Positions 11,653-12,332 of a DNA stretch of 15,733 nt are shown piece after piece. The stretch lies in the UHGV virus genome UHGV-1764726, one strand, 5' to 3'. Origin of the DNA: a virus. Below the pieces are notes generated by a model. It ran no database searches. It had not been told where the DNA came from and saw only the letters and a list, made by a program, of their open reading frames with translations. The translations under genes and the position numbers were made by a program. Each line of letters opens with the position of its first letter. Positions within the stretch are counted from its first letter, which is position 1.

Positions 11653-12027
11653 ATGAAAAAGGATCTGAAAACGCTGGCGCTGGCCAGACTGTCAGGGTTT
11701 CGTCATAAAACGGTGAAGGTGCCGGAATGGGGTAATGTCAGCGTGGTGCTGCGGGAGCCTTCGGCAGAGGCCTGGTATCTGTGGCAGGAAGTGCTCAATG
11801 GTGATGGAGAGGATGACGATACCCTGTCGGTGGTGGCGAAAACCCGCCGTAACCTGGAAGCGGATGTGACGCTGTTCTGCGATGTCCTGTGTGATACGGA
11901 TCTGCAGCGGGTGTTCACTCCGGACGACCGTGAGCAGGTGCTGGCCGTCTATGGTCCGGTACATGCCCGGTTGCTGCGTCAGGCACTGGAACTGATCGCT
12001 GATGCAGAGTCGGCCAGAAAAAAGTAG
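11653..12027 (+). CDS. Tail assembly chaperone (lambda gpG analogue)
   Basis: Start at ATG 11653 (MKKDLKTL...) with SD AAGGGGA, rather than the track start 11605 which overlaps the major tail gene; ends AAA AAG TAG, i.e. a slippery heptamer at its 3' end; located between major tail and tape measure. Confidence 0.75.
   Translation: MKKDLKTLALARLSGFRHKTVKVPEWGNVSVVLREPSAEAWYLWQEVLNGDGEDDDTLSVVAKTRRNLEADVTLFCDVLCDTDLQRVFTPDDREQVLAVYGPVHARLLRQALELIADAESARKK
12018..12024 (+). other. -1 programmed ribosomal frameshift slippery heptamer A AAA AAG
   Basis: The heptamer is in the G frame; the -1 frame is open from 12003 through 12332 with no stop, giving ..ARKK|VARPEIRFLMRLALRLG... Confidence 0.6.
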
Positions 12028-12332
12028 CCCGCCCGGAAATTCGCTTTCTGATGCGACTTGCGCTCCGTCTGGGGCGCACCTTATCCGAACTGCGGCACAG
12101 CCTGAGTGCGAGCGAGGCGATGATGTGGATGGAGTTCGACAGGGTATCCCCGCTGGGTGATGAGCGCGGGGATATCCGTAATGCACAGATCGTGAAAGCG
12201 GTTTTTGGGGCACAGGGGATGAATGTTGCACTGAAGGACGCCATGCTCTGCTGGGGCGAGGATGAGGATAAGCCGGAGGTGGATCCGTTTGCGGCGCTGG
12301 AAGACGCGCTGAGCTTTGCAGCACAGTCATGA
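12024..12332 (+). CDS. Frameshift extension of the tail assembly chaperone (gpT-like part of a G-T fusion)
   Basis: Frame-0 ORF contiguous with the slippery site; conserved G/GT arrangement of siphovirus tail operons; acidic C-terminus. Confidence 0.6.
   Translation, partial: VARPEIRFLMRLALRLGRTLSELRHSLSASEAMMWMEFDRVSPLGDERGDIRNAQIVKAVFGAQGMNVALKDAMLCWGEDEDKPEVDPFAALEDALSFAAQS

Follow-up and report, generated by a model that had tools for sequence, protein, structure and literature searches.

We analyzed a 15,733-nucleotide (nt) stretch of viral DNA, UHGV virus genome UHGV-1764726 (hereafter the window, numbered from its first letter), and conclude that gene G and the T segment that follows it in the -1 reading frame very probably form a tail-assembly-chaperone recoding unit of an HK97/lambda-type siphovirus prophage. 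The G/GT frameshift site is already known: it is a textbook case of recoding, and the exact sequence has been assayed before. The evidence for this window consists of the anatomy of the two genes, the homology of their products, the conservation of the slip site among relatives, and the frameshifting recorded in a reporter with an identical sequence. The relevant features, all on the + strand, are as follows.

11653-12027, + strand: G, tail assembly chaperone, 124 amino acids (aa), from its open reading frame (ORF) and translation, ending AGA AAA AAG TAG
12003-12027, + strand: frameshift box of 25 nt, the sole stretch open in the G frame as well as in the -1 (T) frame
12018-12024, + strand: slippery heptamer A_AAA_AAG, in X_XXY_YYZ phase, covering the two final sense codons of G
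12025-12027, + strand: G stop codon TAG with C as the next base, abutting the 3' end of the heptamer, read directly
12024-12332, + strand: T segment after the slip, 102 codons, VARPEIRF...AAQS and TGA, from translation in the -1 frame
12051-12053, + strand: ATG that starts the separate 93-aa T annotated in GenBank, RefSeq and PGAP records of this prophage

Gene G starts at ATG 11653, and its final codons are GCC AGA AAA AAG (AGA at 12016-12018, AAA at 12019-12021, AAG at 12022-12024), followed by TAG. In the -1 frame, a TGA at 12000-12002 is followed by open sequence from 12003 up to another TGA at 12330-12332. These two boundaries, the -1 frame stop at 12000-12002 and the G stop at 12025-12027, confine the change from G to T to 25 nt, and the heptamer at 12018-12024 is the only slippery motif within this box. 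Direct reading of the letters thus bears out the preliminary description of the end of G, the heptamer and the open -1 frame. That description had also proposed a fusion of about 225 aa and about 25 kDa; the computed G-T product has 226 aa and 25.4 kDa, with the same junction, ...ESARKK-VARPEIRF.... The predicted junction peptide is K-VARPEIR, or SARKKVARPEIR when a different protease is used.

This arrangement is not a chance coincidence. In-phase X_XXY_YYZ heptamers number 13 in the 17 + strand ORFs of the window (~4650 codons), or 0.28% per codon, so that ~0.02 would be expected by chance in a 7-codon box. Among the 13, A_AAA_AAG occurs only at 12018-12024, and only from this heptamer does the -1 frame extend far (102 codons); the other 12 give extensions of at most 40 codons.

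A separate observation concerns the string AAAAAAG irrespective of frame. It is present 8 times in the window when ~2 are expected, and 0 of 200 shuffles reached 8. The other copies are at 927, 1461, 3135, 3180 and 6371 on the + strand and at 7765 and 10862 on the - strand. Where the other + strand copies fall within ORFs, they are in AAA_AAA_G phase (Lys-Lys) and not in the slippery A_AAA_AAG phase.

The protein families identify both parts of the unit. G matches Pfam PF06222 (Phage_TAC_1) with E 1.1e-61 and 206.7 bits (cut-off 25) over profile positions 1-124 of 124, and it also matches PHROG 344, tail assembly chaperone. Residues 152-222 of the fusion match Pfam PF06223 (Phage_tail_T) with E 2.7e-18 and 66.6 bits (cut-off 25.9), and the whole of this domain is held by the 93-aa T ORF. 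When G and T are joined through the predicted slip, residues 2-225 of 226 align to positions 2-224 of the 224-position profile of PHROG 14766 (E 3.7e-86), an alignment that spans the junction. The length of this profile equals that of the GT fusions of HK97 gp14 type, which PHROG 14766 also holds. G and T are placed between the major tail gene, directly upstream, and the tape-measure gene, directly downstream. The two Pfam families, the end-to-end PHROG match, this synteny and the slip sites of homologues together uphold the earlier identification of the unit as the conserved siphovirus chaperone frameshift.

To examine the site in relatives, we compared junctions in 10 phage loci and in 29 species-representative genome loci, at 37-66% identity; the genome loci were found by a search of genome contigs that used a 5-sequence alignment. 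In a tblastn search with the fusion, the match split into two pieces, lying in two frames, in 230 phage records. Most of the compared loci have a slippery site at the homologous Lys codon, and the genera that share it include Escherichia, Salmonella, Klebsiella, Vibrio, Serratia, Pectobacterium, Xenorhabdus and Burkholderia. The junctions are of the following types.

A_AAA_AAG followed directly by a stop: this window, phi467, Vibrio Pm34, Serratia, a Symbiopectobacterium metagenome-assembled genome, Pectobacterium, Brenneria, Enterobacter and Kosakonia
G_GGA_AAG followed directly by a stop: Salmonella FSL SP-016
G_GGA_AAG followed by CCG and a stop: mEp390 type
A_AAA_AAG followed by 4 to 11 sense codons: Xenorhabdus, and Burkholderia phiE125 and Bcep176
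G_GAA_AAG followed by 5 sense codons: HK97 and HK446 type
Non-canonical A_GCA_AAG, G_GCA_AAG, G_GTA_AAG or A_GAA_AAG, each followed directly by a stop: Klebsiella, Raoultella, Pantoea, Silvania and Phytobacter

The box open in both frames is down to 10 nt in phi467 and SP-016, exactly the heptamer and the stop, so in these phages the shift is pinned to the slip site. The preliminary description correctly placed the slip site against the G stop, but this placement is not special: so many relatives (for example, phi467, FSL SP-016 and Pm34) have a stop right after the heptamer that it must be regarded as common in the family and not as peculiar to the window. A joined coding sequence or a frameshift is annotated in the records of HK97, HK446 and Bcep176 (gp69/69'), and the HK97 record describes its joined coding sequence as "translated due to a -1 frameshift".

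The linker that leads from the slip site to the first T-frame ATG behaves as coding sequence in the -1 frame. Its 9 codons are kept as protein, with the pattern V-x-x-P-x-x-x-F-L-M when the Met is included. The Pro of this linker is kept in 35 of 36 unique sequences, with all four Pro codons in use, and third codon positions vary most (mean entropy 1.25, vs 0.90 and 0.78 for positions 1 and 2). The Met itself (Met134 of the fusion, ATG 12051) is unchanged in the first 9 homologues and kept in most relatives, and two Xenorhabdus loci (L105 and L111) have no internal ATG, with Leu in place of Met.

Two kinds of relatives have junctions that depart from the canonical arrangement. The first is Candidatus Symbiopectobacterium endolongispinus (locus L093, about 1215-1865), in which one extra A (a run of A9) puts G and T into one frame, ..AKKKVTQPGMQF.., and the resulting junction, AKKKVTQPG, is exactly the one predicted for an in-frame fusion. 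The G of this locus is also frameshifted upstream, in its N-terminal part, so the locus has the appearance of a pseudogene in a decaying prophage. The second kind comprises the non-canonical junctions of the form A_GCA/G_GCA/G_GTA/A_GAA_AAG_TAA, found at L007 (positions 990-999; Klebsiella phage ST13-OXA48phi12.4), L098, L104, L106, L107, L117, L118 and L120. In the Klebsiella type, an ATG in the T frame lies 3 nt past the G stop. The sequences of these AAG-plus-stop junctions suggest either a "shifty stop" slip, involving one tRNA, or reinitiation.

Frameshifting on the sequence of the window has been measured. Antonov et al. (2013; NAR 41:6514, PMC3711429) gathered 41 HK97-like genes, predicted to be frameshifted, in a "phage tail assembly chaperone" cluster and assayed two Phage_TAC cassettes between GST and MBP in E. 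coli (PMC3711429). The cassette from fs-gene 15618692 gave 7% ± 0.79 -1 frameshifting (PMC3711429, Suppl. Table S2), and a second cassette, with G_GGA_AAG_CCG_TAA, gave 6% ± 0.61 (PMC3711429). The 75 nt listed for the insert of fs-gene 15618692 equal positions 11998-12072 of the window with zero mismatches. This cassette therefore has the same heptamer, stop and downstream sequence as far as the hairpin described below, and it differs from the natural locus in being a short insert between GST and MBP, outside the phage context. The measured frameshifting supports the earlier reading of A AAA AAG as a -1 slippery sequence. It is through this exact match to a published E. coli reporter, and through it only, that the fusion may be taken to be made at a low, fixed fraction.

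We also sought elements that might stimulate the shift. The one solid structure downstream is the following.

12060-12077, + strand: 7-bp GC-rich hairpin, GCGCTCC (12060-12066), loop GTCT, GGGGCGC (12071-12077), from folding; it starts 35 nt 3' of the heptamer

As a stimulator, this hairpin was rejected on four grounds: its 35-nt spacer, an unexceptional fold, the lack of covariation and its position over a conserved coding motif. Folding of 83 nt from the heptamer onward gave z = -1.8, and 10 of 200 shuffles were equally good. Among 30 relatives no covariation was found for 12060-12077; 76.7% of cells are paired, only one pair is changed on both sides, and departures break pairs. The hairpin is real and is found in most Enterobacteriaceae relatives; its letters also encode part of T's conserved ALRLGR(T) motif. 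A stimulatory role is improbable, and the earlier view that this possible stem-loop is probably too far away to act is sustained. As an observation on its codons, GCG CTC ... GGG CGC are reused in most Enterobacteriaceae relatives, and the flanking Leu and Thr codons vary freely.

Searches at the customary distances gave negative results. No Shine-Dalgarno (SD)-like element is present ~10-14 nt 5' of the heptamer in GCTGATGCAGAGTCGGCCAG, in which the best candidate is a 3-nt GAG at a distance of 8 nt, and this GAG shows no conservation among the relatives. No stable structure was found ~5-9 nt 3' of the heptamer, the hairpin at 35 nt being the only solid one. A scan of 11600-12450 with Rfam detected no frameshift element, its one sub-threshold match (to isrK, discussed below) lying over a terminator. 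The site therefore lacks the features of a stimulated signal of the dnaX type, and it has all of the testable features of a G/GT recoding unit.

These data are best explained by the following model. Most ribosomes would end at TAG 12025 and release the 14-kDa G chaperone, and a minority (about 7% in the reporter) would slip back one nucleotide on A_AAA_AAG. In the slip, two tRNA-Lys would re-pair from AAA-AAG to AAA-AAA, and reading would resume at GTA GCC CGC... to yield a G-T fusion of 25.4 kDa. If lambda is a guide, both proteins would coat the tape-measure protein through their G part and the T domain would recruit the major tail protein, with the slip setting a low GT:G ratio. A dedicated stimulator would be unnecessary, as A_AAA_AAG slips by itself in E. 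coli; the stop next to it may contribute slightly. Three elements of this model are inferred: slippage of two tRNAs in tandem, the part played in tail assembly, and the GT:G ratio reached in vivo during infection.

Several points weigh against this interpretation. With neither an upstream SD-like element nor a well-spaced structure, the efficiency of the shift must come from the heptamer alone. The frameshifting on record comes from a reporter with an identical sequence and not from the prophage itself; moreover, the GST-MBP reporter cannot tell ribosomal from transcriptional slippage. All public records of the prophage type give T a gene of its own from ATG 12051. Finally, the Met at this ATG is kept in most relatives, so some independent synthesis of T is possible.

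Among other explanations, one retains the ribosomal slip and changes its mechanism. In a "shifty stop", the shift would occur mainly after translocation: a single P-site tRNA-Lys would slip from AAG to AAA while UAG, in the weak UAG-C context, waits in the A site, in place of a tandem slip. The AAG TAG arrangement with AAA available at -1 is compatible with this mechanism, many relatives share with the window a stop directly next to the slip codon, and the 8 relatives whose first half-site is not slippery all keep AAG and the stop. A large effect of the stop is nevertheless disfavoured, because the cassette with one sense codon before the stop shifts as well (6% vs 7%), and the Burkholderia, Xenorhabdus and HK97 lineages carry 4-11 sense codons past the site. 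Moreover, the relatives with non-canonical sites cluster phylogenetically, and the Klebsiella-type ATG 3 nt after the stop could allow reinitiation instead. We consider it unlikely that a one-tRNA slip replaces the tandem slip in the window.

According to a second explanation, ATG 12051 is the start of a free 93-aa T protein, made in place of the fusion or together with it; ribosomes would initiate there de novo, or would terminate at TAG 12025 and then reinitiate. T is annotated in this way in GenBank, RefSeq and PGAP, its ORF contains the entire Phage_tail_T domain, Met134 is invariant in the first 9 homologues, and the ATG is just 23 nt past the G stop. Direct reading of CCGGAAATTCGCTTTCTG shows no SD sequence upstream of this ATG, however, and the 9 codons ahead of it are kept as -1 frame protein with synonymous variation. 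The Leu found for Met in Xenorhabdus L105 and L111, the match of the fusion to PHROG 14766 through the junction and the 7% frameshifting of the identical cassette likewise speak against free T, as does the fact that the active lambda species is GT, in which G tethers T to the tape measure. We therefore regard free T as very unlikely to be the right account.

Transcriptional slippage would produce the same fusion if RNA polymerase lengthened the A6 run by one A; G and T would then be in frame on an A7 mRNA, and the ribosome would not slip. The site is indeed a homopolymer run, the published reporter is blind to the difference, and the A9 allele of the Symbiopectobacterium pseudogene shows that such an extra A gives exactly the predicted in-frame fusion. 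Appreciable transcriptional slippage in bacteria, however, is known from runs of about 8-9 or more, and A6 is shorter. Antonov et al. (2013; PMC3711429) cite A runs >7 for programmed transcriptional realignment. The G_GGA_AAG and G_GAA_AAG sites of homologues, at the same codon, are not homopolymers, and the G_GGA_AAG cassette is about as efficient (6% vs 7%). Furthermore, the X_XXY_YYZ phase, which is irrelevant to polymerase, is kept in every relative with a canonical heptamer. Polymerase slippage is thus an extremely improbable source of the fusion.

The chance that a sequencing error or a pseudogene has split what is truly one in-frame gene, or a broken one, is negligible: homopolymer runs do tend to attract errors, but A6 is the form seen in 109 independent IMG/VR stretches (as an exact 24-mer, for which the A7 version has 0 and the A5 version 1), in 92 phage records and in 1246 E. 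coli genomes, and the two-frame layout is kept across genera. An error at the A run, which the preliminary description had named as grounds for discarding the frameshift, is ruled out by these population data. The sequence AAAAAAGTAG is present in 78 of the 79 related IMG/VR viral loci in which the junction could be located; these matches are mostly near-identical loci, and are informative on invariance and not on diversity.

The unit may be compared with known systems. HK97 gp13/gp14 (and HK446) are alike in their protein families (about 60% identity over the fusion), in synteny and in a -1 slip at the homologous Lys codon. HK97 differs in having the site G_GAA_AAG, with 5 sense codons ahead of the stop, and in having a moron, gp15, that separates T from the tape-measure gene. 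Lambda G/GT occupies the corresponding place in the tail operon and likewise shifts to -1 at a low level close to where G ends (3'); the PF06223 T domain, the absence of a required stimulator and the proposed function are also shared. In contrast, its heptamer is G_GGA_AAG and is not adjacent to the stop, and lambda gpG probably belongs to a chaperone family different from PF06222. The primary papers on lambda G/GT are reportedly those of Levin, Hendrix and Casjens from 1993 and of Xu, Hendrix and Duda from 2004, 2013 and 2014. The 2004 paper is said to treat the tail chaperone G/GT frameshift, with the HK97 gp13/gp14 family in the original description. For lambda, the G/GT mechanism has been reviewed with a G:GT ratio of roughly 30:1 (Atkins et al. 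2016, PMC5009743).

The dnaX gene of E. coli has the identical heptamer, A_AAA_AAG, and the same tRNA-Lys slippage. It reaches ~50% owing to an SD-like element on the upstream side and a hairpin that follows within a few nucleotides; unlike dnaX, the window has no SD-like element (a GAG only, 8 nt upstream), has its solid hairpin 35 nt away, and shifts at ~7%. "Shifty stop" or single-codon A_AAG slips were reportedly described by Weiss et al. in 1987, and the B. subtilis cdd and IS1222 CGA_AAG sites are examples of single-codon slips. Such cases resemble the window in having an AAG Lys codon directly before a stop, with AAA available at -1. The window differs in having the full tandem heptamer, which can account for the shift without the stop.

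The neighbors of G and T are the following.

10922-11638, + strand: major tail tube protein with a C-terminal Ig-like domain (Pfam Phage_tail_2 / TTP plus Ig_3 / I-set)
12380-15622, + strand: tail tape measure protein (Pfam Phage_HK97_TLTM 9.5e-92, TMP_3, Tape_meas_lam_C)

The gene order of the window is a KilA-N protein, small and large terminase, a protease-capsid fusion, portal, connector and completion proteins, the major tail protein (Ig-like), G, T and tape measure. An antisense ORF of 256 aa at 11692-12462 matched no Pfam or PHROG family and was treated as spurious. Long-tailed lambdoid E. coli prophages and phages, among them JLK-2012, 2851, YYZ-2008 and many Stx1- and Stx2-converting phages, match the DNA of the window at 99-100% identity. 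The prophage type is present in 1246 of 5426 complete E. coli genomes (about 23%).

Some further observations concern other parts of the window. At 4979-6916, one ORF of 645 aa joins a prohead protease domain (Peptidase_S78) and a major capsid domain (Phage_capsid), and the portal gene (7128-8492) comes after this ORF and not before it, which is an unusual order of head genes. The tail tube protein at 10922-11638 has its I-set / Ig_3 domain in the same ORF, without a frameshift; some records name the product "fibritin" or "Hoc-like", which looks like a misannotation. Between the portal gene and the head-tail connector, an ORF of 299 aa (8489-9388) has only a sub-threshold match to CBM_5_12 (22 bits, cut-off 26.2). 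About 700 bases at 1309-2038, between the KilA-N region and the terminase genes, have no sizeable + strand ORF. Finally, 12294-12362 has a weak Rfam match to the Salmonella prophage small RNA isrK (27 bits vs a gathering score of 50, E ~1e-3), which spans the end of T and a terminator-like hairpin, AACCGC-TGAG-GCGGTT, with U's (seven consecutive, two of them from the stem). This hairpin is located between T and the tape-measure gene; in HK97, putative terminators and the moron are found there.

The practical value of these results lies in annotation. GenBank, RefSeq and PGAP list a free-standing 93-aa T and omit the 226-aa GT, which is likely the functional species, and the point touches a very common E. 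coli prophage, including Stx1- and Stx2-converting phages. The non-canonical AAG-plus-stop junctions of relatives provide a modest side lead. It is possible, if doubtful, that the abutting stop is a working part of the signal, with slow RF1 termination at UAG-C letting the P-site tRNA-Lys slip. If so, this would explain why relatives in Klebsiella, Raoultella, Pantoea, Silvania and Phytobacter always keep AAG and the stop although the first half of their heptamer is gone, and the family would be a natural series from two-tRNA to one-tRNA -1 slippage.

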